From an uncultured Candidatus Saccharibacteria bacterium (lineage in GTDB: Bacteria > Patescibacteriota > Saccharimonadia > Saccharimonadales > UBA10212), in NCBI GenBank assembly GCA_964567555.1, contig CAZMNA010000003.1:18882-82881 (forward strand): a stretch of DNA of 64,000 bases. The letters are read 5' to 3'. Each line of letters opens with the position of its first letter. The stretch's first letter is position 1. The translations under genes and the position numbers were made by a program. Shown in pieces: positions 8,430 through 59,254 of the stretch. Under the pieces are notes generated by a model. The model saw only the letters and a program-made list of their open reading frames with translations, had not been told where the DNA came from and made no database searches.

Positions 8430-8503
8430 TGGGGAGTGGCCAAGTGGTAAGGCACTGGGTTCTGGTCCCAGGATCGGGGGTTCGAGTCCCTCCTCCCCAG
8501 CCA
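8430..8503 (+). tRNA. tRNA-Gln (anticodon CTG), CCA encoded
   Basis: Folded by hand: 7-bp acceptor stem tggggag/ctcccca, anticodon stem ctggg/cccag with loop ttCTGgt, T-arm ggggg-TTCGAGT-ccctc, discriminator G then CCA. Confidence 0.9.
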
Positions 8504-24062: not shown

Positions 24063-24662
24063 ATGGAGGTGTCTATGAGCAACTACTTACTGGATACCTC
24101 TTTAGATGTTCCAAATATAAATCTGGTTTCGGCGCTCAGAAGAGCGCTTGTTTTATATAGAGCAAATAAAACAGCAGCCAAAAGAACGACTTTAGCTAGA
24201 ACAAAGGACGTTATTATGCGGGTGCCGAAGGTAGTACGTCTTGATAGGGGCTCCGAAAAATTAATCGGCATGGCGGTCCAATCGCACGATATTTTATTTA
24301 AGGCTAACACTGCATTCCCGTTTAATCTTTTCCCCGATACTGTAACGGTTGACCGGGAAAAGCTGACCATAGCCAACCGCATCTTTTTCTTAACAGCTAA
24401 AATTACCAGCGTGCCTATCCGAGACATATTGAACGTTGAGGCCGATGTGGGGCCGTTCTTTGGCTCTGTGCACCTGACTAGCCGCTATTTCTTCACCAAC
24501 CCCCGCTCAGTCAATTTCCTGCACCGTCATGACGCTTTAGATTTACAGCGGCTAGTGCAGGGCTACATTCTTGCCCACGAGCAGCACCTGGATTGTTCTA
24601 AAATGAACAAGGAACAGCTTGTAACTTTGCTTGAAGATTTAGGCAAGGGCGACACGGATTAA
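24063..24662 (+). CDS. hypothetical protein (199 aa), paralog B of the duplicated island gene
   Basis: See 19797-20408. Last gene before the atp operon. Confidence 0.55.
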   Translation: MEVSMSNYLLDTSLDVPNINLVSALRRALVLYRANKTAAKRTTLARTKDVIMRVPKVVRLDRGSEKLIGMAVQSHDILFKANTAFPFNLFPDTVTVDREKLTIANRIFFLTAKITSVPIRDILNVEADVGPFFGSVHLTSRYFFTNPRSVNFLHRHDALDLQRLVQGYILAHEQHLDCSKMNKEQLVTLLEDLGKGDTD

Positions 24663-42778: not shown

Positions 42779-43276
42779 CTAAGCGGCGGTGTCGTCAATG
42801 CCATGGACTAATTGCTGGCGAGAATACTGCACGGCGGCGCCAACAGCGGCCGTTTCAGCCGCTAGAGCGTCTAAGGCATTGCCCGGGATCTGGCTCGGTT
42901 CAAAAATACCCATCATGTCATGCAGACTGCCGTGATGTAGAATCCCAGTAATAACTACCGATTGGCCTGCTTCTGCCATTGCGTCCAAGGCCAATCCGCC
43001 TACTAACGCGGCGCCAAGTTTACCGCGAAAAGTCTCCGCTTTAGACCTAGTCATATTGGCCATCGCGCCTAAGTAGCCTACCAAAAAGTGCCTGCCGCTA
43101 TCCTGGAAAAACTCAAATAAACGATTGGTGTGGTCAAGCCAATGGTTAGCCTCTGCCGCGGTGGATAAACCCCCAGCCGCCGCCAGCGCGATGACAGCTG
43201 CAGCAATTTCTCGCCTGCGGCTGATTGTATCCTCACCCACGTAAGGCGCTTCAACCGCCTCAGCGAATTCAGTCAT
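42779..43276 (-). CDS. hypothetical Ala-rich protein (165 aa)
   Basis: ORF only. Confidence 0.4.
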   Translation of the reverse strand: MTEFAEAVEAPYVGEDTISRRREIAAAVIALAAAGGLSTAAEANHWLDHTNRLFEFFQDSGRHFLVGYLGAMANMTRSKAETFRGKLGAALVGGLALDAMAEAGQSVVITGILHHGSLHDMMGIFEPSQIPGNALDALAAETAAVGAAVQYSRQQLVHGIDDTAA

Positions 43277-46261: not shown

Positions 46262-46297
46262 TAGTGAAAGAACGCACGCGCGTGGGGTGGAACAGAT
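46262..46297 (+). repeat. intergenic repeat copy 2
   Basis: ATAGTGAAAGAACGCACGCGCGTGGGGTGGAACAGAT; sits between two convergent genes. Confidence 0.8.
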
Positions 46298-46310: not shown

Positions 46311-46694
46311 CTAGAGCAGGCCGGCTTTGATAAGTTGAGGAAAGATTTCTTTCGTGAAGTTCGGCGTTACTTTTGTGTTGCCAAATTCAATATCCTGCCT
46401 GGAGAACCAACCGATTTTTGTAATTTCCTTGCTGACGGTTGCAGGCTCGCCAACAACATCTACTAAAAAGTATTTAGCTGTCGGCGTGTAGTCGTGTGAT
46501 ACTTGGCTGAAAAGTTTTGCTTTATTAATTTTCACTCCGAGCTCTTCTGCCAACTCCCGGCGGAGGGCTTGTTGGTAGTCCTCGCCCGCGTTTAATCGCC
46601 CGCCAGGGGTCCAGTACAGTCCCAGCTCGTCATTTGAAACCAGCAAAATTCTTTTATCTCTAATTATCAATGCGCCAGCACGCCTAGCTTTCAT
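46311..46694 (-). CDS. NUDIX hydrolase (127 aa)
   Basis: Nudix box GGRLNAGEDYQQALRRELAEELGV. Confidence 0.7.
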   Translation of the reverse strand: MKARRAGALIIRDKRILLVSNDELGLYWTPGGRLNAGEDYQQALRRELAEELGVKINKAKLFSQVSHDYTPTAKYFLVDVVGEPATVSKEITKIGWFSRQDIEFGNTKVTPNFTKEIFPQLIKAGLL

Positions 46695-46719: not shown

Positions 46720-47274
46720 TTAGCTTAATAAGCTTAATTGAATCGCTTCCGGGGAGTAATCACTCGGGAATCCCAGTTCATGTAGTTGTTGGGGTGTGAG
46801 TTCAGCCAATGCTCTTAGATAAACCTCCACGCTTTCTTCTACATGATCGAGCTCTTCTAGCGGCTCGTCCCTTCGTTGACTTTCTTCCCAGCGTTCACAA
46901 GAACTACGGCTAGTTTGCATGCCGCTCATTCCCAGGGGGCGTTTTCCGTCTGTCCGAATGTGAGGCGCGACACTCTCGTCGTTGCTGCCGGGGTTCTGTA
47001 CCTGAATGGATAGATATACCGTGAAATCCTGGCCTTCTACTACACCCGCCAAGGGAACCTCAGGTGTTATGTGCCAATCTCTCCCATAGCTCTCTTGCGG
47101 CTTAAGCAGTGGCCTTACTTTATCAATCATCCTATTAAAGCGCACGACATAGCCTAATTCCCCTACGCCTTCAATCCGCTTTGCAGGCTCGTCTTTTACC
47201 TTACTATACTCAACCGCATGCCGGTCACCTTCGTAAAAATGAAAGCCAGCAGCAATTAAGTTCTCTTTGTCCAT
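46720..47274 (-). CDS. hypothetical protein (184 aa)
   Basis: ORF only. Repeat copy 3 lies ~88 bp upstream of its start. Confidence 0.45.
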   Translation of the reverse strand: MDKENLIAAGFHFYEGDRHAVEYSKVKDEPAKRIEGVGELGYVVRFNRMIDKVRPLLKPQESYGRDWHITPEVPLAGVVEGQDFTVYLSIQVQNPGSNDESVAPHIRTDGKRPLGMSGMQTSRSSCERWEESQRRDEPLEELDHVEESVEVYLRALAELTPQQLHELGFPSDYSPEAIQLSLLS

Positions 47275-47344: not shown

Positions 47345-47389
47345 GGCGGGTTATATATATAAAAGGCGCGCGCGTGGGGTGGAACAGAT
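47345..47389 (+). repeat. intergenic repeat copy 3
   Basis: GGCGGGTTATATATATAAAAGGCGCGCGCGTGGGGTGGAACAGAT. Confidence 0.8.
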
Positions 47390-48113: not shown

Positions 48114-48150
48114 ATATATAAGGAACGTGTGCGCGTGGGGTGGAACAGAT
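48114..48150 (+). repeat. intergenic repeat copy 4
   Basis: ATATATAAGGAACGTGTGCGCGTGGGGTGGAACAGAT. Confidence 0.8.
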
Positions 48151-50007: not shown

Positions 50008-50284
50008 GATGAGCTCCTTAATTGGTGCATTAATTATAGCAGTGTCTGTTGGCCTAGCTGCGGCGGCGGAGATTGCTACCAAGCCAACAACGTACAAGGA
50101 CAAAATCGCCAGGGGTCTGGGCCCATCCGTAGCCACTGGCGCCACGGCTACAAACCATAGAATCATCCCCGCAAGCTCTACCTGCTTTTAAATATGGCAA
50201 AGATCGCCCGCTTAAGGACAAAAGCCCTATCAATAAATGGCCTAGAATGGCCTGTTATAATGGTTGAGTAATTTGACAACTAAA

Positions 50285-50420
50285 AATATCAAGAGAGCAG
50301 CGAGGGATCTAGCCCAACGACCTGCCAGCAACCTAGCGTTCTTGCCAAGGTGCTAAGCCTAGCCCAAACGGGAAGGATAAAATCGATGAATCCTTTCCTT
50401 GCCAGAAAGGATTTTTATTT
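50285..50420 (+). promoter_or_regulatory. SAM-I (S-box) riboswitch with an intrinsic terminator that sequesters the metK SD
   Basis: ATCAAGAGAGCAGCGAGGGATCTAGCCCAACGACCTGCCAGCAACC..GGTGCTAAGCC matches the SAM-I core (AUCAAGAGAGG.GGAGGGA.UGGCCC..GCAACC..GGUGCUAA). Hairpin tcctttc/gaaagga plus T8 lies at 50391-50420, immediately before the metK ATG. Confidence 0.75.
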
Positions 50421-50421
50421 A

Positions 50422-51546
50422 ATGAGCGACGAATATCATGCCGATTTATTTACATCAGAAAGTGTTTGCGCCGGTCACCCGGACAAGATTTGTGATGCTA
50501 TCTCCGATGCCATCGTGGATGCGGGCCTTGCTCAAGATCCTGACTCGCGCTGCGGCATAGAGACAGTCGCTGGCGCCAACCAGATTTGCCTATTTGGCGA
50601 GATAAAGACCAAAGCTCAGCTGGATTTTGAAGCTATTGCTCGCGGCAAGGTAAAAGAGCTCGGCTACACTCGTCCGGAGTGGGGGTTTTCTCAGCAGAGC
50701 ACATTTTCTAATGACATTCATCAGCAATCTCCAGAGATAGCCCGAGGTGTTGACCCGGGCGGGGCAGGCGACCAAGGCATGATGTTCGGCTTCGGGTGCA
50801 ACGAAACACCGGAGCTGATGCCTCTGCCCATAATGCTGGCCCATAGCCTAACCAAGCGGATTGATGAAGCCCGCCAAAACGGTGAGCTAGGCTGGCTACG
50901 GCCCGACGGCAAAGCTCAGGTAACAGTGCGTTATAAAGATGGCAAACCTTCCAGTATTGAAAAGCTGGTTGCTGCGGTAGCGCATGATGAGCACACTGCG
51001 CCCGAACAAGTCCGCGCCGATGTCATTGCTAACATTATGCAGCCGGTCGTGGAACACTACGGTCTTAAATTACCGACCGAAAACAATATTATTGTTAATG
51101 GCACTGGTCTTTGGCACATCCCCGGTCCCGAGAGCGATGCAGGTCTGACTGGCCGTAAGATTGTTGTGGACGGCTACGGTGGCTATGCCCGCGTCGGCGG
51201 CGGCGCCTTTTCCGGCAAGGACCCCTCTAAAGTGGACCGCTCTGGTGCGTATGCGGCGCGCTATATTGCCAAAAATATCGTGGCGGCTGGGCTAGCCGAT
51301 AAGTGCGAGGTAGGACTAGCCTACGTGATTGGCCAACCGCGGCCGCTGATGCAAACAATAGATACTTTTGAAACCGGCAAGGTTAGCGACGAAGAGCTCC
51401 ACCAGTTCAAAGACAAGCTGCTAGATACCAGCGTAAAGGGCATAATCAACGGCCTAAAATTGGCTCGGCCAATATACTCAGCCACAGCTGCCTATGGTCA
51501 CTTTGGCAAAGCCGACTTGCCGTGGGAGCAAATTGCCAAAACTTAG
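50422..51546 (+). CDS. metK: S-adenosylmethionine synthetase
   Basis: FTSESVCAGHPDK, GAGDQGMMFG and GGGAFSGKDPSKVDRS motifs. Start moved to the ATG at 50422, downstream of the riboswitch. Confidence 0.9.
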   Translation: MSDEYHADLFTSESVCAGHPDKICDAISDAIVDAGLAQDPDSRCGIETVAGANQICLFGEIKTKAQLDFEAIARGKVKELGYTRPEWGFSQQSTFSNDIHQQSPEIARGVDPGGAGDQGMMFGFGCNETPELMPLPIMLAHSLTKRIDEARQNGELGWLRPDGKAQVTVRYKDGKPSSIEKLVAAVAHDEHTAPEQVRADVIANIMQPVVEHYGLKLPTENNIIVNGTGLWHIPGPESDAGLTGRKIVVDGYGGYARVGGGAFSGKDPSKVDRSGAYAARYIAKNIVAAGLADKCEVGLAYVIGQPRPLMQTIDTFETGKVSDEELHQFKDKLLDTSVKGIINGLKLARPIYSATAAYGHFGKADLPWEQIAKT

Positions 51547-51674
51547 GTTTTGCACAAGTTTGCCCACAACTTACCCACAACTTCTAAACAGAAAAACGAT
51601 GCTTGTGTAAAAAATCCATAGTCCGCCAAAAAATAGGCGTTGACGCGTCTCACGGTTCCGATTATAGTAGTTAG

Positions 51675-51788
51675 TGTCATCGTGAGGTGACGCGGTAAGA
51701 TCAGCAATGAAACTACCGTCTAGGTAACCCCTCCCTCGTGGAAGAGTTACCACAAAAATAGGGCCCTCAAAAGCCCTATTTTTGGTTT
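51675..51788 (+). ncRNA. candidate small RNA 1 (~110 nt) with its own promoter and terminator
   Basis: TTGACG-17-TATAGT promoter at 51640-51668. Transcript contains a GUGAGGUGAC hairpin and a C-rich CCCCUCCCUC loop. Intrinsic terminator atagggc/gccctat plus T5 at 51758-51785. No plausible ORF. Confidence 0.5.
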
Positions 51789-52237
51789 CCGGGACAGACC
51801 AAGCCAGCTTTCTCGACGGCCCAGCCACCGATACCGCTGGCTTTCTTAGTCTATTGCTTCGTCAGGAGCTTGCGTTGCTTGCTTGCAGTATCTTTGCATA
51901 CAGCTTCTCTCCGCTACTCGCTCCTTTCTCGCACTAGATCTAAATCTGCCTCCGGCAACTATTGGCAAAGTGCCTAAAACTTGGGCGGGGATTGTAGAAA
52001 TAACAAAAATCTTTACAAGATTTAGCCATTTAGGTTATGCTTTTTTCAGGCTAAGCAAAAAGCCAAAAGTACACCTCACAAAAAAGGGCGGGCAGTCACC
52101 CGAGTTGGATTGATTGCTCGCCCATCTCTTTGACCGCAGAGTCGCCTGTGGATAATTAAGTTTATTGCAAAAAATACTACGCTCTAAGGTGTTATGAGCG
52201 CGTTGACACACAATGAACGGCGGACTATAGTTAATAG

Positions 52238-52335
52238 CGTCATCTACTTTGTGAGGTGACAGATAGACTCCCTAAAAAGAGACTATCGCCAAAGACAGGG
52301 CCCTCAAAAGCCCTGTTTTTGTTTTCTCAAGCTTT
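52238..52335 (+). ncRNA. candidate small RNA 2 (~95 nt), paralog of sRNA 1; could instead be a cis-leader of the FMN-binding gene
   Basis: TTGACA-17-TATAGT promoter at 52203-52231. It shares GTCATC..GTGAGGTGAC, CTCCCT and the terminator AGGGCCCTCAAAAGCCCT-T5 with sRNA 1. It ends 33 nt before the ATG at 52368. Confidence 0.5.
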
Positions 52336-52367
52336 TATCAGCCACACATTGGTAAACTACCCTTTGT

Positions 52368-52934
52368 ATGCGAAAAACGATTGCCATTATTGCCTGCGTC
52401 GCCCTACTTGGGATTTTGAGCTATGGCCTGCACCAAACGGGCGGTCCACAAGGCCTAGTCCAGCCAAAAAAGACTTTGGCCGGCTCTTCGGTCTCAGCTA
52501 CTTCGCCGACGGGCGGAAGTGTGTCTTATAAAGACGGTACCTTCACCGGCAGTGCCGAGTATATGCCTTACGGCACGGTCCAGATTGCGGCTGTCATTTC
52601 GGGCGGCAAGATAAAAAACATAAAATATCTTCAGATGCCAAGCGGTCTAGGCCACACCAACCAAGTCACTTATGTCGCCGAACCGCTACTCAAACAGACA
52701 ACCCTCTCCGCCCAGAGTGCTAATATAGATTTTGTCTCCGGGGCAACTCTAACCAGCGAAAGTTATCAAGCTTCCTTACAATCTGCCTTGGACCAAGCAG
52801 CTACCTCAGGATCTTCGGGTTCAACCGGTAGCTCAAACGCGTCTAGCAATGCAGCGCAGGGTAACAACGCTAACACGAATAACTCAGGCAACACACCGGT
52901 TTACAATCAGCCCTACATCTACGGAGACCAGTAG
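52368..52934 (+). CDS. secreted FMN-binding domain protein (flavinylation motif SGAT)
   Basis: N-terminal signal/TM. FMN_bind domain YKDGTFTGSA..IKNIKYL..FVSGATLTSESY, then a Ser/Asn/Gly-rich linker. Confidence 0.75.
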   Translation: MRKTIAIIACVALLGILSYGLHQTGGPQGLVQPKKTLAGSSVSATSPTGGSVSYKDGTFTGSAEYMPYGTVQIAAVISGGKIKNIKYLQMPSGLGHTNQVTYVAEPLLKQTTLSAQSANIDFVSGATLTSESYQASLQSALDQAATSGSSGSTGSSNASSNAAQGNNANTNNSGNTPVYNQPYIYGDQ

Positions 52935-52944
52935 CCTCCCAAAA

Positions 52945-53649
52945 ATGAGACAAACTTTTCATGTAATGGGGACAGTCGCGTCCCTGGACATCCCCGGCTG
53001 CGAGGACGGGGATGTCTTTAAAGCGGCCTTTGAGCGTCTACACAAAATCGATGAGGATTACAGCCCATTTAAACCAACCAGCTTAGTGAGCCGCTTTAAC
53101 GAAAATAAGTTAAAAAAGCCAGGGCCAGAATTTCAAAAAATAGTTACGGCCTGCCAGCAGTGGCAAAAAGCTACCGATGGTTACTTTTCGGCTTGGTACG
53201 GCAAAGAGTTTGAGCCCTCAGGCTACGTTAAAGGCTGGGCTATAGATGAGGCCGCCAAGGTTATAAAAAAAGCTGGTTATAAAACATATTGCCTGGGTAT
53301 CGGCGGCGATGTACTGGCAGCATCAGCCGGCGAAAAAATTTGGAAAGTCGGTATACAAGACCCCAGAAATCCTAAGCGATTGCTCCAGGCCGTGCATATG
53401 AGTAGTGGCGCCATAGCAACCAGCGGTGCATATGAGCGGGGCGCTCATATCATCAACCCAAAAACCGGGACCACAGCTAAAGCCTGGAAAAGCGTGAGCA
53501 TAATCGGGCCGGATATTATTAGTGCTGACGTGTTGGCCACGGCAGCCTTTGCGATGGAAGGCGCACCGGAATTTTTGGACGGCTGGCATGAGTATAATTA
53601 TCTGCTTGTGGACCCCAAAAATAGACAGGTGACTAATCTAGCAGCCTAA
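52945..53649 (+). CDS. ApbE-family FAD:protein FMN transferase (compact, 234 aa)
   Basis: ApbE similarity throughout (GWAIDEAA, LGIGGDV, TSGAYERG.HIINPKTG). No signal peptide is seen from the ATG at 52945. Confidence 0.7.
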   Translation: MRQTFHVMGTVASLDIPGCEDGDVFKAAFERLHKIDEDYSPFKPTSLVSRFNENKLKKPGPEFQKIVTACQQWQKATDGYFSAWYGKEFEPSGYVKGWAIDEAAKVIKKAGYKTYCLGIGGDVLAASAGEKIWKVGIQDPRNPKRLLQAVHMSSGAIATSGAYERGAHIINPKTGTTAKAWKSVSIIGPDIISADVLATAAFAMEGAPEFLDGWHEYNYLLVDPKNRQVTNLAA

Positions 53650-54530
53650 TTTAGGTCTTCAGTCCTGACCAACCCAAGATCAACGAAGTTTTTCACTAAG
53701 TGTGTCTCGCCGGCCGCTAAACAAGCGCGCGCTGCCTCCATGTACTCTTCCTTGGTAAAACTGGATCTGCTCGCTACAGCCTCAGTCGCCAGGAGTCCTT
53801 GGTCTCCAAGTATAGCCGCATTGGCCCCAGCCTCTTTCGCGCGATCTGCCCAGAAAGGATTTAATTTTTCGTCAAGTACTGCTGAAGAAATAAGATGCAT
53901 GCTCTGTTCCAAGGAAATCAGGCGCCTACTGATTTTTGTCATATCAATCGCCTCACGTAGGCCAGGGCTAAACTTAAAACGCGGTGCTCTATGAGACGCT
54001 AGCTCGTAAAGGCGGTCATTTGAGGCATTGTTAAAACCAATACTAAAGGACTCTTCGCGCTTAGAGTCTGGATTGTCGTCGTCAAAGACGTGCAGGAATT
54101 TCAGCGGGTCCGCTACTAACGCTCCCAAGGAGTCGTCTCTAATTAAGCTGAACGCCAGCTCGGCAGTAAGGTCATTCCTACCCTTCCACTCTTCCCACCT
54201 TAATATGGGGTTTGCAACTAAATTGTGGCCTGGATTTTTCTCGAGGATTAAGGTTGGCCCCACCCGGACGGATGAATGTTGAACATAGCCACTCGTGTGT
54301 CGGTAGGTGAAGTATCCATTTTCATGCCATAGATTATTAATAGCCTCGGCTTGCTCAACCAAGGCTCTATTGTGGCGAATCAGGGGGTGGTAGGCGCTTT
54401 TGGCAATCCGTTCTTGGGTTTTTTGTTCAATTCGCGCCTGCTTTTGTTCGGCTCTTGCGGTATCCCTTGCGGCATCAAGCTCCCGCTTTCGTCTTGTCCC
54501 GAGCCAGTTATCCAAGGTCTCGTAATTCAT
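53646..54530 (-). CDS. hypothetical protein (294 aa)
   Basis: ORF only; charged, helical N-terminus. Confidence 0.45.
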   Translation of the reverse strand: MNYETLDNWLGTRRKRELDAARDTARAEQKQARIEQKTQERIAKSAYHPLIRHNRALVEQAEAINNLWHENGYFTYRHTSGYVQHSSVRVGPTLILEKNPGHNLVANPILRWEEWKGRNDLTAELAFSLIRDDSLGALVADPLKFLHVFDDDNPDSKREESFSIGFNNASNDRLYELASHRAPRFKFSPGLREAIDMTKISRRLISLEQSMHLISSAVLDEKLNPFWADRAKEAGANAAILGDQGLLATEAVASRSSFTKEEYMEAARACLAAGETHLVKNFVDLGLVRTEDLN

Positions 54531-54576
54531 AGATGACTACAATACAATTTTCTGGGCGATTATTCAAGAGCGGGTT

Positions 54577-56064
54577 CTAATTGTAGCCGGGGAAGAAATC
54601 CGTCACGATCTGCCCGTAAGGAACACCGGCAGTAAGTAGTAGTTGACGCATGCCGGCTACATAACCTTGAGGGCCGGAAATATAAAACCGGCGCACCCTA
54701 AAATCAGGGATTTTTTTGGCAAGAGAACCAACGTCCAGGCCGCTAGTTATAAAGTGGCTGGTCAGGCCAACGCTGGCCGCCCGTTTAAACAACCCGGTAT
54801 ATGCAAATTCGTTTGCGTCATTTGCGTTATAAATAAGCACTATATTGCGCCAAGCGTTATGATCCAGCAGGGATTTAACCATGCTCCTAAATGGTGTCAC
54901 GCCAATGCCGCCGGCTAAAAAAGCTAGTCTGACCCGGGGATCCTCAGGCAGAACGAAATCCCCGGCCAGCTGAGCTGCCAAAATCTTTCCGCCCGGCTTC
55001 AGCGAGCCAAGAGCAGATTTAAAACCACTGGGTTGAGGCGGAACTTTGATAGTGAAGGCAACCGAAGGCTCGGTTGGTGAAGAGGCGATGGTTAGATAGC
55101 GGCGGTTGCCGCGGCTGTCTAAGCGTACGCCGGGCAGGGTCCATTCCATATATTGGCCTGGTATAAAAGCTAGTCTCTTTTTAGTCTCAAATATATAGCT
55201 ATAGATTCCACTGGCTTCTTTTTGGGAGCGCACCAGCTTGAGTACCATGCTGCGATTGGGGGACATGATAAAGGTCAGAATATTACCGACAAGCAATGCC
55301 TCCTCGGGCGCTAGTTTTAGGCGCGCAATTGAGTAAGCACCGCCGACAACTACAGCGTAAACCAGTTGACCGTTGAGTGTGGTCGGAGAAGTCAGCGGCT
55401 CGGTTAGCATGATGGTGGCAAAAAATAACAGCGAGCTATCTAAGATGGCAGCAACCAGTGTGCTGGCAGCGTGCTCGGCCGGCGCATAGGCCAGCGTATA
55501 GGACAAAAATATGGCCATCGTCACAGCCACCATCTGCATTCGTCTGATTCTTTTGACAATCAAAAAACCACCTATTAATACAAGTGGCGCTAACGGCTTA
55601 GTGCCAACCCACCAACTTGCATAATTATTGAGTCCAACCCCGGCGATGAGCGCGCCAAGTGCTGCCGGGTTAAAAATGTGCCGCCCGTGCCAAGTTAGGA
55701 TGAACTTACTCGCGATGGCTCCGAATCCTGCCACTGCCAATATCCCTAGGCCGTGGAGATTGGTAGCCGGAGTCATTATTAGGCTCAAAATCAGGGCGGT
55801 AATTAAATAAGATTCCTGATTGGCTGGTATCCTCAGAAGCTTGGCTAAAATCCAGTTGAGCGCGCCGCAGACGGCAATCAGCCAGCCAACCGAACTTAAA
55901 AGCTGCCAGGCGGTGAAGGACAGTTTGTGCAGACTAGTTAAGACCGCTGCTGCCAACACGTAAATAATCAGCGCGTAGAGCACTAGACGATAGGTCGTGA
56001 ACCTGTCCAGCAGTCTATCAATTACGTCTTCGGCCTTGGCCAAGGCTAAGTTGAGAGTTTTCAT
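54577..56064 (-). CDS. fusion of an RnfD/NqrB-like polytopic membrane domain with a C-terminal FAD/NAD(P)-binding ferredoxin-reductase domain
   Basis: N-terminus has ~8 TM helices with HIFNPAALGALIAG (NqrB/RnfD NPA motif). C-terminus has RYLTIASSP (RxYS FAD site) and GGIGVTPF (NAD site). Confidence 0.6.
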   Translation of the reverse strand: MKTLNLALAKAEDVIDRLLDRFTTYRLVLYALIIYVLAAAVLTSLHKLSFTAWQLLSSVGWLIAVCGALNWILAKLLRIPANQESYLITALILSLIMTPATNLHGLGILAVAGFGAIASKFILTWHGRHIFNPAALGALIAGVGLNNYASWWVGTKPLAPLVLIGGFLIVKRIRRMQMVAVTMAIFLSYTLAYAPAEHAASTLVAAILDSSLLFFATIMLTEPLTSPTTLNGQLVYAVVVGGAYSIARLKLAPEEALLVGNILTFIMSPNRSMVLKLVRSQKEASGIYSYIFETKKRLAFIPGQYMEWTLPGVRLDSRGNRRYLTIASSPTEPSVAFTIKVPPQPSGFKSALGSLKPGGKILAAQLAGDFVLPEDPRVRLAFLAGGIGVTPFRSMVKSLLDHNAWRNIVLIYNANDANEFAYTGLFKRAASVGLTSHFITSGLDVGSLAKKIPDFRVRRFYISGPQGYVAGMRQLLLTAGVPYGQIVTDFFPGYN

Positions 56065-56101
56065 CTTGAGATATATTTGCCCGCCAAGCTGAGAATGGGC
56101 T

Positions 56102-57286
56102 TTAGGGGTTACAAATCTTGCAGTCGCCGGCTTCGCGGGCTTCCTCCATCAACAGTTGTCCAGCCTTCCACCACGGCTCAAAGTCGCGGAAGCCGACAAA
56201 GTCGGCCGCATCTCTTAACCACCAGCCCAAACGGCCAAAGGTACCAAAATGACCCCACAGCACTGCCGCCCAGCCGTGACCGCACGGCGTGATATAAACC
56301 GGTTTCTTGGGTGTGTAAGCTTTCGGTGGAGCACCGGCCGCCAGCCGCTTTAAATTGCCGGCCACAAACTTAGCATCAAAGAGTGCGGTCTGGGCCATCC
56401 CGCTATAGGGCGTATCAGAGTTGTCGCCAATAACGTAAATATTGTCTTCTGCCGCCAGCTTCTCATCCACGGCTACCTTACCGTGTTCGCTCAAGGCAAA
56501 ACCGTTAGTGCTGTAAAACGGGTGATTGGCTACTCCGGCAGTCCAAATAACCGTATGACTAGCGATGGAGTGGCCGCTAACTTTCAATTCGTCGGCTGTC
56601 TCGGCTTGGACACTCTGGCCAAGGTATAACTTTACACCCAACTTTCGTAGGCGTTTTGCTACGGCTTTAGAATAAGCACCTGGCATACGGGGCATCAACC
56701 TGGGCTCGGCTTCCACTAAATCCACATGGAACTTGCGAGGAGGCAACTTGTGGGCTTGCCTGACTCTATCCAAGTAGCCGGGCAGGGCGCCAGCTAGTTC
56801 TACTCCGGTTGGGCCGCCGCCGATGATTACATAGTTAAGTTCGCCCTCACCTGTAGTCAAGCTTGTATGCAAATGCTCGCGCAGGCGCCGAGCTTCCTCT
56901 ACCGATTTTATACCGTAGGCGTATTGCTCTAAACCCTTAATGCCAAAGTAGTTGGTAACAACGCCCAGAGCCAAGACCAAGTCATCGTAGGCGCATTTTT
57001 TGCCGTCTTTGCTTAAAACCTGCTTTTTAGTGCGGTCCAGTTTTGCCGCAGTGCCGCCTACTAACTTAACCGGCCTATTCTCAAAAATACTGCTTAACAT
57101 GATTTTTGACGCGCCCAAAGAGCCTCCAGTGGCCGCCCTATAAAGAGTCGGGTAGTAGCGGAAATGATTGTGCTCACTCATTAGAGTCACTTCAAAACGC
57201 GTATCGCCGGATAGCTCAAGGGCTGTTTTTATGCCGCCAAAGCCTCCGCCCACAACTAGAACTTTTCTTTTTTGGTTCATTATCAA
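56102..57286 (-). CDS. type II NADH dehydrogenase (NDH-2)
   Basis: Two dinucleotide-binding motifs (VVGGGFGG and IIGGGPTGVE); overall NDH-2 similarity. Confidence 0.8.
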   Translation of the reverse strand: MIMNQKRKVLVVGGGFGGIKTALELSGDTRFEVTLMSEHNHFRYYPTLYRAATGGSLGASKIMLSSIFENRPVKLVGGTAAKLDRTKKQVLSKDGKKCAYDDLVLALGVVTNYFGIKGLEQYAYGIKSVEEARRLREHLHTSLTTGEGELNYVIIGGGPTGVELAGALPGYLDRVRQAHKLPPRKFHVDLVEAEPRLMPRMPGAYSKAVAKRLRKLGVKLYLGQSVQAETADELKVSGHSIASHTVIWTAGVANHPFYSTNGFALSEHGKVAVDEKLAAEDNIYVIGDNSDTPYSGMAQTALFDAKFVAGNLKRLAAGAPPKAYTPKKPVYITPCGHGWAAVLWGHFGTFGRLGWWLRDAADFVGFRDFEPWWKAGQLLMEEAREAGDCKICNP

Positions 57287-57332: not shown

Positions 57333-58820
57333 ATGGAAAAATATGTTTACCGAGAGGGACTGCTAACAGTGGCGAATAGAGAACTATCTAAGCACTCAGA
57401 AAATAAGTGGAGAGTGTTGTCACTGCTGGTCATTGCCCAGTTTATGGTTGTTTTGGATGTTTCTATAGTTAATGTGGCTTTGCCGAGCATGGCTAAAGCC
57501 CTGCATTTTTCTGGCAGCAACCTCCAATGGGTCATTACCGCCTATACTCTGACTTTTGGTGGCTTCTTGCTCTTGGGCGGCCGAGCAGCCGATCTTTACG
57601 GTCGGCGCAGGATGTTCATCGGCTCGGTCTTCGCTTTTGCCGTGATGAGTTTGCTTTGCGGCTTTGCTGCGAGCGAGGATCAAGTCATTTTTGCTAGGGC
57701 CTTCCAGGGTCTGGCGGGGGCGTTTATGTCGCCAGCTGCGCTATCTATCGTTATCAGTGAATTCCGCGAAGGCAAAGACCGTAACACGGCGCTGGGCATT
57801 TGGGCGGCGGTGTCGGCCGGCGGTGCAGCAGTTGGGTTAGTGATGGGCGGTGTACTGACCCAGTACCTTAGTTGGCGCTGGAACTTCTTCGTAAATGTGC
57901 CTATTGGCGCTTTTGTAGTCTTCACTGCGATTAGACTTCTACCACACCATATCGGAGAGGAGCACAAGAAAACGCGTCTGGATTTCCCTGGCGCCGCCTT
58001 CGCTACCAGCGGTTTGGTAAGTTTGGTCTATGGCCTATCCAAGGCACCAGCCGATGGCTGGGGTTCTACCACAGTCTGGGCTTTTATAGTGGCTGGCATA
58101 GCTCTGATGGTGGGCTTCGTCTTAAATGAAAGCCGTACTGCTCAGCCGATGCTGCCGTTGAGCCTGTTTAAAACGCGTAATGTCTTGGGGGCTAATGCGG
58201 CCTTCTTGGTGATTGCCTGCACGATGTTCTCCATGTTCTTCTTCATGACACTATACGTCCAGCAAGTGCTTGGCTATTCACCAGTTAAATCCGGCTTTAG
58301 TTTCTTGCCTGTCACCTTTGTGATTGCCACCATGTCCGGCCTGGTCGCCAAATTTATTGTCCCCAAACTTGGTTACAAACCGCCGATGAACCTTGGTCCC
58401 CTGGTATTAGCGCTTGGGCTGTTCACGATTGCCCACACTATGAAAGTTGGCGGGACTTACTGGCATAATGTCTTTCCCGGTTTAGCTATCGCCGCGTCCG
58501 GCATGGGTTTAACTTTCGTATCCGGTACTCTAGCGGCTACATCAGGCGTCCCTAAGCATCTGTCGGGCATAGCTTCGGGCGTTTTAAATACCGCCCAGCA
58601 AGTAGGCGGTGCCATCGGCTTGGCAATTTTATCGGCGGTGGCATTTTCGACCATTCATGCTGAAACTTCAGCCGGCGGACCGGCTAATTATGCCCAGGTT
58701 CATGGTTACCAGGCCGGCTTGGATGTTGGTGTAGGTTTGGCGCTCGCCGCCGCTGTGGTCGTGCTGCTGGTGGTTAAAAACCACAAAGTTGATCCTAGTA
58801 AGATGATGCCGGGCGCTTAG
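57333..58820 (+). CDS. MFS transporter, 14-TMS DHA2 (EmrB/QacA-like) family
   Basis: LDVSIVNVALPSMA motif, 14 hydrophobic segments. Confidence 0.8.
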   Translation: MEKYVYREGLLTVANRELSKHSENKWRVLSLLVIAQFMVVLDVSIVNVALPSMAKALHFSGSNLQWVITAYTLTFGGFLLLGGRAADLYGRRRMFIGSVFAFAVMSLLCGFAASEDQVIFARAFQGLAGAFMSPAALSIVISEFREGKDRNTALGIWAAVSAGGAAVGLVMGGVLTQYLSWRWNFFVNVPIGAFVVFTAIRLLPHHIGEEHKKTRLDFPGAAFATSGLVSLVYGLSKAPADGWGSTTVWAFIVAGIALMVGFVLNESRTAQPMLPLSLFKTRNVLGANAAFLVIACTMFSMFFFMTLYVQQVLGYSPVKSGFSFLPVTFVIATMSGLVAKFIVPKLGYKPPMNLGPLVLALGLFTIAHTMKVGGTYWHNVFPGLAIAASGMGLTFVSGTLAATSGVPKHLSGIASGVLNTAQQVGGAIGLAILSAVAFSTIHAETSAGGPANYAQVHGYQAGLDVGVGLALAAAVVVLLVVKNHKVDPSKMMPGA

Positions 58821-59254
58821 GCCGACTGGCACGCTGAACAAAGTCCGTGAACCTCCAAAACATGGCCGCGTGGGGAAAGACCCTCTTTGCTGGCTACGGA
58901 ACTTATCATTGTCTCTAACATCTGGTTGGCCGGCAGGGTGTAAGTGCGGCCGCACTTGGTGCAGTAAAAATGGTGGTGGTGGCCTGCAAACATTTCAGAC
59001 AACTCAATCTTATATTTCCAGCCAATGTTTAAGCGGCTGACAATACCTAGGCGTTCAAACAGCTCAATCGTTCGATAAAGTGTAGCGCGGTCTGTCTTGC
59101 CTTGTCCGCGCTTGACCAGCACCTGCATGCTTTGAGCCTCTTGGCCCAACAGTAAATCAAATACTGCCAAACGGCTTTTGGTCAGACTGGCGCCGCTCTT
59201 TTTTAATATCGCTCGCAGGTCTTTATGTTGGGCACTCATCTCATCCATAGGCAA
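58817..59254 (-). CDS. Fur-family metalloregulator (likely Zur)
   Basis: HHHFYCTKCG..C..C metal sites. Divergent from the ZIP transporter gene. Confidence 0.75.
   Translation of the reverse strand: MPMDEMSAQHKDLRAILKKSGASLTKSRLAVFDLLLGQEAQSMQVLVKRGQGKTDRATLYRTIELFERLGIVSRLNIGWKYKIELSEMFAGHHHHFYCTKCGRTYTLPANQMLETMISSVASKEGLSPRGHVLEVHGLCSACQSA

Follow-up and report, generated by a model that had tools for sequence, protein, structure and literature searches.

The 821-nt gap (51547-52367) between metK and the gene for an FMN_bind lipoprotein very probably contains two independent noncoding RNA genes, units 1 and 2, which we regard as candidate sRNAs. The gap lies within the window, the 64-kb stretch of DNA that was analyzed as a whole. 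The best explanation for the two units and their relatives elsewhere (A-type units) is that they form a new, lineage-restricted family of sRNAs of ~85 to 115 nt within one clade of Saccharibacteria from soil and rhizosphere. Between units 1 and 2 we found a third candidate sRNA gene, unit B. In our full model the A family and its companion B interact by base pairing, a proposition that we consider evenly poised between right and wrong.

Two candidate sRNA genes between metK and the FMN_bind gene

Protein relatives place the host, which is uncultured, among the Saccharibacteria (Patescibacteria), and the contigs that carry the units come from soil and rhizosphere metagenomes. To the left of the gap, metK (50350/50386-51546) is preceded by a SAM riboswitch (50283-50383; 52.1 bits in Rfam). 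To the right, the gap adjoins a flavin-based redox cluster, which begins with the FMN_bind gene (52368-52934) and continues 3′ with genes for ApbE, a 294-aa protein, an RnfD-like/NAD-binding protein, and a Pyr_redox_2 oxidoreductase.

Unit 1 spans 51640-51784 on the plus strand, including a promoter (51640-51668) in which TTGACG (51640-51645) and TATAGT (51663-51668) are separated by 17 nt. The predicted RNA of ~110 nt (51675-51784) begins with P1 (51676-51691; GTCATC-GTGA-GGTGAC), a hairpin of 6 bp with a GUGA loop that carries the invariant GUGAGGUG at 51682-51689. This is followed by P2 (51692-51719), P3 (51723-51751), which has CUCCCU at 51731-51736, and a terminator (51753-51784) consisting of AGGGCCCTCAAAAGCCCT and T5 at 51760-51784. 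Unit 2 (52203-52321 with its promoter, also on the plus strand) matches the promoter consensus at 11 of 12 positions (52203-52231; TTGACA at 52203-52208, 17 nt, and TATAGT at 52226-52231). Its predicted RNA is a short form of ~84 to 89 nt (52238-52321) with P1 (52239-52260; GTCATC-TACTTTGTGA-GGTGAC, in which the enlarged loop is UACUUUGUGA), P3 (52262-52287; CUCCCU at 52268-52273), and a terminator (52290-52321) that has the sequence of the unit 1 terminator at 52297-52321.

A sequence-only reading of this region had already described both promoters, the shared P1 blocks, the CUCCCU element, and the common terminator, and all of them are present where it placed them. Its measurements need some adjustment: the units are 563 bp apart rather than 550 bp, and the unit 2 RNA is shorter than the ~95 nt that it gave. 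Both the P1 pattern (2 matches against 0.00 expected) and the 18-nt terminator (2 against 0.07) are above chance, and the predicted RNAs of units 1 and 2 fold with z scores of −6.4 and −5.4, respectively, with none of 200 shuffles folding equally well. The sample is small, consisting of 8 genomes in which many units are related by descent, so shuffle-type statistics overstate independence.

The A-type comes in two forms. In the form represented by unit 1, a P2 hairpin accompanies a P1 whose GUGA is a closed tetraloop; the form represented by unit 2 has no P2 and a larger P1 loop, UACUUU-GUGA. One of the units found in another genome (L196 A1) combines features of both forms, which, together with the identical terminators in the window, suggests that paralogous A units have exchanged sequence.

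A-type units in other Saccharibacteria

Outside the window, A-type units are found in 7 more metagenome or MAG loci of Saccharibacteria, the distant ones of which were reached via relatives of FMN_bind and MetK. The 12 units comprise two each in the window, L188, L190, and L196 and one each in L001, L189, L197/L198, and L199, with L197 and L198, which are near-duplicates, counted as one distinct sequence. All 12 have a TTGACR-17-TATAnn promoter, a 5′-terminal P1, one or two more hairpins, and an intrinsic terminator, and GTGAGGTG is unchanged in every one of them. The orthologs of unit 2 are L188 U2, L199 A, and L196 A2.

The arrangement of the units differs among genomes. The order in L188 is that of the window (metK, U1, B, U2, FMN_bind), while L197 and L198 have A, B, and FMN_bind, L199 has A and then FMN_bind, and L196 has B, A1, and A2. 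In L001, B lies upstream of a gene for a DEAD-box helicase and the A unit lies between that gene and FMN_bind. The module is duplicated and inverted in L190, which lacks the FMN_bind and ApbE genes: one A unit is convergent with metK, B is on the minus strand, and the second A unit is convergent with the RnfD-like gene. The A unit of L189 is cut by the contig end, and the contigs L186 and L200 start within the unit 2 terminator. The spacer between units 1 and B (51786-52011; strand not assigned) contains a partly conserved element for which we looked for ORF homology and found none; its core, ..GCAGTATCTTTGCATACAGCT.. at 51886-51905, recurs 3′ of an A-type terminator only in L188 (2825) and L001 (3662).

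Between the window and its relatives, metK and the FMN_bind gene are only 26 to 46% identical at four-fold synonymous sites, which are thus essentially saturated; this indicates that the conserved noncoding blocks reflect selection. The structure is preserved as well. P1 is paired in 71 of the 72 cells given by the 12 A units, a count that excludes the model-search alignment A11, which contained a reverse-strand terminator match. Pair 2 of P1 is U-A in seven units, C-G in four, and U-G in one, and the other changes in the 5′ arm are all between U and C opposite G. Within subfamilies, compensatory changes are also found in P2, P3, and the terminators.

A covariance model trained only on the units of L001, L190, and L197, and thus including no window sequence, recovers unit 1 with 44.6 bits (E = 8.6e-11) and unit 2 with E = 1.6e-3, along with L188 U1, L189, L196 A1 and A2, and L199 A. 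The same model has no match in 14 other Patescibacteria loci, and neither an A nor a B unit was found by regular expression or covariance model in other Patescibacteria FMN_bind loci (L005-L020, L040, and L187). In the MetK-based relatives L191-L195, synteny is lost and no units were found. Ten contigs with an identical FMN_bind protein have 100% identical intergenic DNA and hence offer no variation to compare. A metagenome scan with the exact P1 pattern returned at least 120 loci, but the matches listed had no further similarity or promoter context and were set aside as chance matches.

Taken by the usual marks of an sRNA gene, both units have their own promoter and intrinsic terminator, recognized as consensus matches that are nevertheless conserved, around ~50 to 300 nt, conservation above neutral, substitutions that preserve structure, and no conserved ORF. 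The view that they are paralogous, free-standing candidate sRNAs is thus borne out by conservation, by their noncoding character, and by a model built without the window.

Unit B and its complementarity to the A-type core

Unit B (52012-52132, plus strand) lies between units 1 and 2. Its promoter (52012-52041) is TTTACA-18-TATGCT, and fold prediction gives an RNA of ~85 nt (52048-52132) with a 5′ hairpin (52049-52064; GGCUAAGCAAAAAGCC), a single strand that would serve as the seed (52065-52085; AAAAGUACACCUCACAAAAAA), and a long 3′ hairpin (52086-52123) followed by AUCUCUUUG. The U-tract after this hairpin is interrupted (CUCUUU), making it a weaker terminator than those of the A units. The sequence-only reading had described unit 1 as having no downstream gene, which is correct for protein genes but not for sRNA genes, since candidate gene B follows it. 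Unit B, its complementarity to the A core, and the box array described below were all absent from that reading.

A search with the covariance model R1 finds exactly one B per locus, in 7 loci if the near-duplicates L197 and L198 are both counted, and B is indeed present once each in the window, L188, L001, L190, L196, and L197/L198. The single strand carries the invariant AAAAGUACACCUCACAAA, and the 6 distinct B sequences agree at 30 of the 37 positions of the B core, GCCAAAAGTACACCTCACAAA. The −10 element TATGCT is invariant in all six, and a −35 element (TTGAC or TTTAC, with a spacing of 17 to 18 nt) is recognizable in five, the exception being L196, which has TAGTTT. The 3′ hairpin has a different sequence in every genome, yet it always forms. 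Conservation of the B block begins exactly at the predicted transcription start, 3′ of the conserved −35 and −10 elements, which fixes the transcribed strand. The B core had 0 matches to viral contigs, giving no sign of phage origin.

The single strand of B contains CACCUCAC (52072-52079), a sequence exactly complementary to the invariant core of the A units. We estimate the chance of such complementarity between the two cores at ~5e-4 (our own estimate, from ~30 windows × 4^-8). In unit 2-type RNAs, the enlarged loop places UUU opposite the invariant AAA of B, which extends the match with unit 2 of the window to 11 bp. The predicted duplex is 8 to 9 bp with unit 1-type RNAs and 11 to 14 contiguous or near-contiguous bp with unit 2-type RNAs. 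Every one of the six distinct loci with enough sequence has both A and B.

RNAduplex ignores intramolecular structure when applied to full-length RNAs, and RNAcofold and seed scans were therefore used instead. With RNAcofold, P1 was opened and the GUGAGGUG:CACCUCAC duplex was formed in all 10 cognate pairs, with ddG values of −6.7 to −10.8 kcal/mol compared with 0 to −4.9 kcal/mol when the B seed was scrambled. When both strands of the 64 kb were scanned with the B seed and its own antisense was set aside, the best nonself site was P1 of unit 2 (−19.0 kcal/mol), and P1 of unit 1 ranked about third to fourth (−16.0 kcal/mol) against a background of −4.8 ± 2.5 kcal/mol. The predicted site is not freely accessible in unit 1-type RNAs, in which GUGA forms a closed tetraloop of the GNRA type and the bases of GGUG are paired. 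Both cores are invariant in all sequences and hence show no intermolecular covariation, for which reason A-B pairing is something that we infer.

The mechanism that we propose runs as follows. Each A gene would be transcribed from its own near-consensus sigma-70-type promoter, ending at the intrinsic terminator, and would display its functional core on P1, with GUGA in the loop and GGUG in the 3′ arm. The invariant, A-flanked single strand of B would offer the perfect complement, so that the A and B RNAs could pair in trans, starting at the P1 loop, with P1 then opening. One RNA may thereby antagonize, sequester, or destabilize the other, as in a regulator-and-sponge relation, and the partner that remains unpaired would have other targets to act on. 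Those parts of this scheme that concern transcription, in vivo pairing, the way in which regulation runs, and which protein binds the boxes are inferred from the DNA.

A possible but rather unlikely alternative is that A and B are genuine sRNAs with no mutual regulation, each acting on mRNAs, a protein, or the ribosome, and that their complementarity is a by-product. In one variant, B, whose CACCUC resembles the 16S anti-Shine-Dalgarno sequence, would target ribosome-binding sites of the GAGGUG type, and A would simply carry a motif like such a site. GAGGUGA does match the canonical Shine-Dalgarno complement, the Shine-Dalgarno-led genes of the window use GGAGG or GGAGGUG, and a crude scan of the window found a few translation-start regions moderately complementary to the B seed or P3 (e.g., the genes at 24063, 35877, and 9709). 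However, the scores of these mRNA candidates fall in the background tail, while the A hairpins themselves are the best B-seed partners across 128 kb, and the UUU extension of the unit 2-type loop specifically lengthens the match to B. In a second variant, A would use the CU-rich element of P3 on Shine-Dalgarno sequences, much as the sequence-only reading had suggested for CUCCCU. A CU-rich 5′ arm is in fact found in P3 of nearly all A units, but it is fully base-paired in several homologs, and in L001 and L190 it is buried in a perfect UUCG-capped hairpin. Thus, it is not an obvious seed, and what selection keeps invariant is the purine-rich GUGAGGUG of the 5′ hairpin rather than CUCCCU.

A DnaA-box-like array upstream of unit 1

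The DnaA-box-like sequences of the 64 kb are most densely clustered upstream of the unit 1 promoter (51548-51612, plus strand). The cluster consists of three direct 9-mers, TTTTGCACA at 51548, TTGCCCACA at 51560, and TTACCCACA at 51571, each with 1 to 2 mismatches from the DnaA-box consensus TTATCCACA, and an inverted box, TGTGTAAAA, at 51604-51612. The direct boxes are at approximately −92, −80, and −69 from the −35 element, i.e., 11 to 12 bp apart, and all three are present in the window, L188 U1, L001, L189, L190 (+), and L196 A1; the array is shifted by 12 nt and has two boxes in L197 and is partial in L190 (−). At about −36, the window, L188, L001, L190 (+), L196 A1, and L197 also have the inverted box, which is absent from L189 and L190 (−). 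The only perfect copy of the consensus in the 64 kb is on the minus strand at 52147-52155, 48 nt upstream of the −35 element of unit 2. A perfect box lies at the matching place in L188 U2, and the unit in L197 is also preceded by one. Just upstream of the unit 2 −35 element is another box, CTCTAAGGTGTTAT (52182-52195, plus strand), conserved as CTAAGGTGTTA in L188 U2 and L199 A.

The array is probably a site for DnaA or for another regulator that recognizes direct repeats, as predicted from its sequence, and a protein that recognizes the phased TTnTCCACA (DnaA-box-like) array probably controls transcription of unit 1-type genes. We do not read it as oriC, since the GC skew does not switch here and no dnaA lies nearby, and dnaA and dnaN are not found adjacent to it.

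These boxes raise the question of whether the conserved blocks are elements of the DNA itself, namely, a DnaA-box cluster (for titration, origin-related, or DnaA-regulated) and an operator, GTGAGGTG, in both orientations, with any transcripts being incidental. The concentration of boxes here, including the single perfect one, would fit this explanation, as would their phasing at 11 to 12 bp and fixed distances from the −35 element in most of the unit 1-type promoters examined and the occurrence of the putative operator on both strands within 600 bp. Nevertheless, we consider it improbable. P1 pairing is kept through compensatory and wobble-compatible changes, hairpins and terminators are retained despite sequence change, and the conserved B block starts exactly where transcription is predicted to start, 3′ of conserved −35 and −10 elements. 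The lack of a GC-skew switch and of a nearby dnaA and the duplication and inversion of the module in L190 also argue against it.

A quite improbable extension of the A-B pairing model would join the three RNAs and the array in one dedicated circuit of a reduced-genome Patescibacterium. The Shine-Dalgarno mimic (GAGGUGA) on the 5′ hairpin of the A RNAs would be set against the 16S anti-Shine-Dalgarno mimic of B (CACCUC), their titration would tune the access of Shine-Dalgarno-led versus leaderless mRNAs to the 30S subunit, and the DnaA-box-like array would couple the circuit to replication status via DnaA.

Leader and coding alternatives

Because unit 2 lies close to the FMN_bind gene, the sequence-only reading had offered as an alternative that it might be a terminator-type cis-leader, and it is conceivable by extension that the whole family acts in cis as a riboswitch or attenuator of the FMN-binding/ApbE operon. 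The distance from the end of unit 2 or an ortholog to the FMN_bind ATG is 42 to 76 nt in the window, L199, L186, and L200, and most genomes show synteny between the family and the FMN_bind-ApbE-RnfD-like locus. In the window, the T-run ends ~42 to 46 nt before the ATG at 52368 and not 33 nt before it as had been stated. However, the fixed position and orientation upstream of one gene that would be expected of a cis-leader are not seen across genomes. FMN_bind is adjoined by B in L197 and, in L001 and L188, by an A unit with a spacer of 240 to 280 nt, the A units of L190 are convergent with metK and the RnfD-like gene in a locus without FMN_bind and ApbE, and the next element after unit 1 is another candidate sRNA gene.

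Furthermore, the FMN_bind gene has a promoter-like element of its own, TGGTAAACT (52350-52370, plus strand), which is of the extended −10 type, lies 9 nt before the ATG, and is outside the sRNA units. Either TGATAAAnT or TGGTAAACT is kept 9 to 13 nt before the FMN_bind ATG in L001, L188, L197, and L199. Hexamers resembling the −10 element peak at 7 to 9 nt before the ATG in 16 of 61 genes, which suggests that many mRNAs are leaderless; at least a quarter of the genes here appear to be so. With leaderless-type genes and an element of its own, FMN_bind would not need the promoter of unit 2. The folds examined (MFE and centroid) suggested no antiterminator that competes with the terminator, and no Rfam riboswitch matches the units. 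We therefore regard a leader function as very unlikely and the units, given their varying positions and orientations and the separate element of FMN_bind, as free-standing.

That the units encode small proteins is hardly credible: short ORFs are present (6 aa in unit 1, 20 aa in L188 U1, 76 aa at 51883-52113, and 85 aa antisense over unit 1), but those overlapping the units have no Pfam matches and their similarity is limited to the RNA cores and alike on both strands, the 85-aa antisense ORF, which is the longest, has stops and 1-nt indels in L188 and mismatches distributed evenly among the codon positions (5, 6, and 8), the AUGs in P2 are missing from L190 (−) and L197, and gene callers place no gene in the region on 5 identical contigs. 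The earlier statement that the units have no convincing ORF can thus be extended, as none is conserved and no homologs were found for the ORF area at 51883-52113.

Relation to known RNA families

At the gathering threshold, Rfam 15, whose families include LhrC, RsaE, Qrr, Atu_C8, and the riboswitches, identifies only a tRNA and the SAM riboswitch in the window, and neither the A units nor B match a family there. When the region 51540-52400 was searched at E ≤ 10, the best match was Atu_C8 (RF02502), an sRNA of the Rhizobiales, which is the best match to both units and is similar in length and in having a terminal hairpin. However, its scores of 20.9 and 15.0 bits are far from the gathering score of 50, and only the terminator aligns, so the units are not members of this family. 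In five homologous loci searched at E ≤ 1, no match overlaps any A unit. The B unit of L196 is overlapped by a match to AaHKsRNA41 that is far below threshold (22.3 bits versus a gathering score of 97).

Multicopy tandem sRNA families are known from other bacteria and include LhrC1-5 in Listeria, Qrr1-5 in Vibrio, and AbcR1/2 in the Rhizobiales; LhrC sRNAs have CU-rich motifs and are driven by a response regulator. The A units resemble these families in being paralogs of ~100 nt in one intergenic region, each with a promoter and terminator and with a short invariant motif in common. They differ in that the motif is purine rich and is located on the 5′ hairpin, in having no Rfam match, in the complementary companion sRNA gene alongside, and in their Patescibacterium host.

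Sponge pairs such as RsaI with RsaG/RsaD in Staphylococcus aureus and SroC with GcvB in enterobacteria likewise involve a conserved single-stranded seed that is complementary to a conserved segment of another sRNA. Here, however, the putative partners are separate genes that lie side by side and are co-conserved, and the core of the predicted duplex is only 8 to 14 bp. Kissing-loop antisense RNAs (CopA/CopT, RNAI/RNAII, and hok/sok) also combine a hairpin loop with a complementary RNA and have strong promoters, which in our case are predicted. Unlike those systems, A and B are encoded in trans to each other rather than on opposite strands of a single locus, their complementarity is short, and there is no replicon-control or toxin gene. 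A sponge of the CsrA type with GGA loops was set aside on inspection, as GGA motifs do not occur consistently in loops.

Implications

To our knowledge, regulatory RNAs are essentially uncharted in the Candidate Phyla Radiation (Patescibacteria), and a search of the full-text literature and of Rfam found nothing relevant on RNAs such as these. Patescibacteria have tiny genomes and few transcription factors. If expression fails to be confirmed, what is described here would be a set of conserved motifs. As it stands, an island of ~820 nt has three strongly conserved candidate sRNA genes, among them a complementary pair, together with a phased array of putative protein-binding sites. The A and B families could be entered in RNA databases and searched for in metatranscriptomes, and the island may thus provide a testable entry into posttranscriptional control in the Patescibacteria.

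Noncoding elements around the candidate sRNA island

The terminator of unit 1 (51753-51784), one of the two window copies of the A-type candidate sRNA family, is symmetric, consisting of an A-run, a hairpin, and a T-run, and because of this symmetry it could terminate transcription on both strands. Since a minus-strand promoter-like site (TTGTAA-16-TACAAT; 52018-51991) is directed toward this terminator, a minus-strand transcript of ~210 nt spanning the spacer is conceivable. The spacer contains a partly conserved element (window, 51786-52011) that also occurs in two related Saccharibacteria loci, L188 (2731-3000) and L001 (3605-3841). In all three, its core reads TTGGCGCATYGCT..CRCAGTATTTnATACAGCTCG, and an A-type terminator always lies just 5' of it. 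An explanation for this element was sought in an open reading frame or a fold, and neither was found.

The CACCUCAC sequence of the RNA from B, the candidate sRNA unit whose core is complementary to the A core, is also found in L001 (1752-1759, plus strand), within the 5' untranslated region of a minus-strand Lipoprotein_15 gene (..GCACCUCACUACCUCCGUCUUGAAGGAG..). In the L001 genome, A RNAs might act on this 5' region; CACCUCAC is absent from the window ortholog.

Rfam matches in the window comprise a SAM-I riboswitch (RF00162, 52.1 bits; 50283-50383) directly 5' of metK, an arrangement also present in L188 (848-949) and in another related locus, L190 (1381-1482), and, besides this riboswitch, only a tRNA gene (62.1 bits; 8430-8500). 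A separate motif, ATCTGTTCCACCCCACGCGCG, occurs in minus-strand sense in three consecutive intergenic regions (46281-46294, 47373-47386, and 48134-48147) within a series of functionally uncharacterized minus-strand genes, and it may be a common regulatory site.

Neighboring redox genes and gene starts

The genes at 52368-57286 encode an FMN_bind lipoprotein, an ApbE flavin transferase, a 294-aa protein, an RnfD-like/NAD-binding membrane protein, and a Pyr_redox_2 oxidoreductase. Synteny of this cluster, which resembles flavin-based extracellular electron-transfer loci, is kept across the Saccharibacteria compared.

Among the 61 gene starts examined in the window (for example, 31149, 42779-43276, 46311-46694, 46720-47274, 58817-59254, and 52368), only about one-third have a Shine-Dalgarno-like core, and 16 genes have AT-rich TANNNT hexamers, which peak 7 to 9 nt before the ATG. 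These two features give a large share of the mRNAs of this Saccharibacterium a leaderless look.
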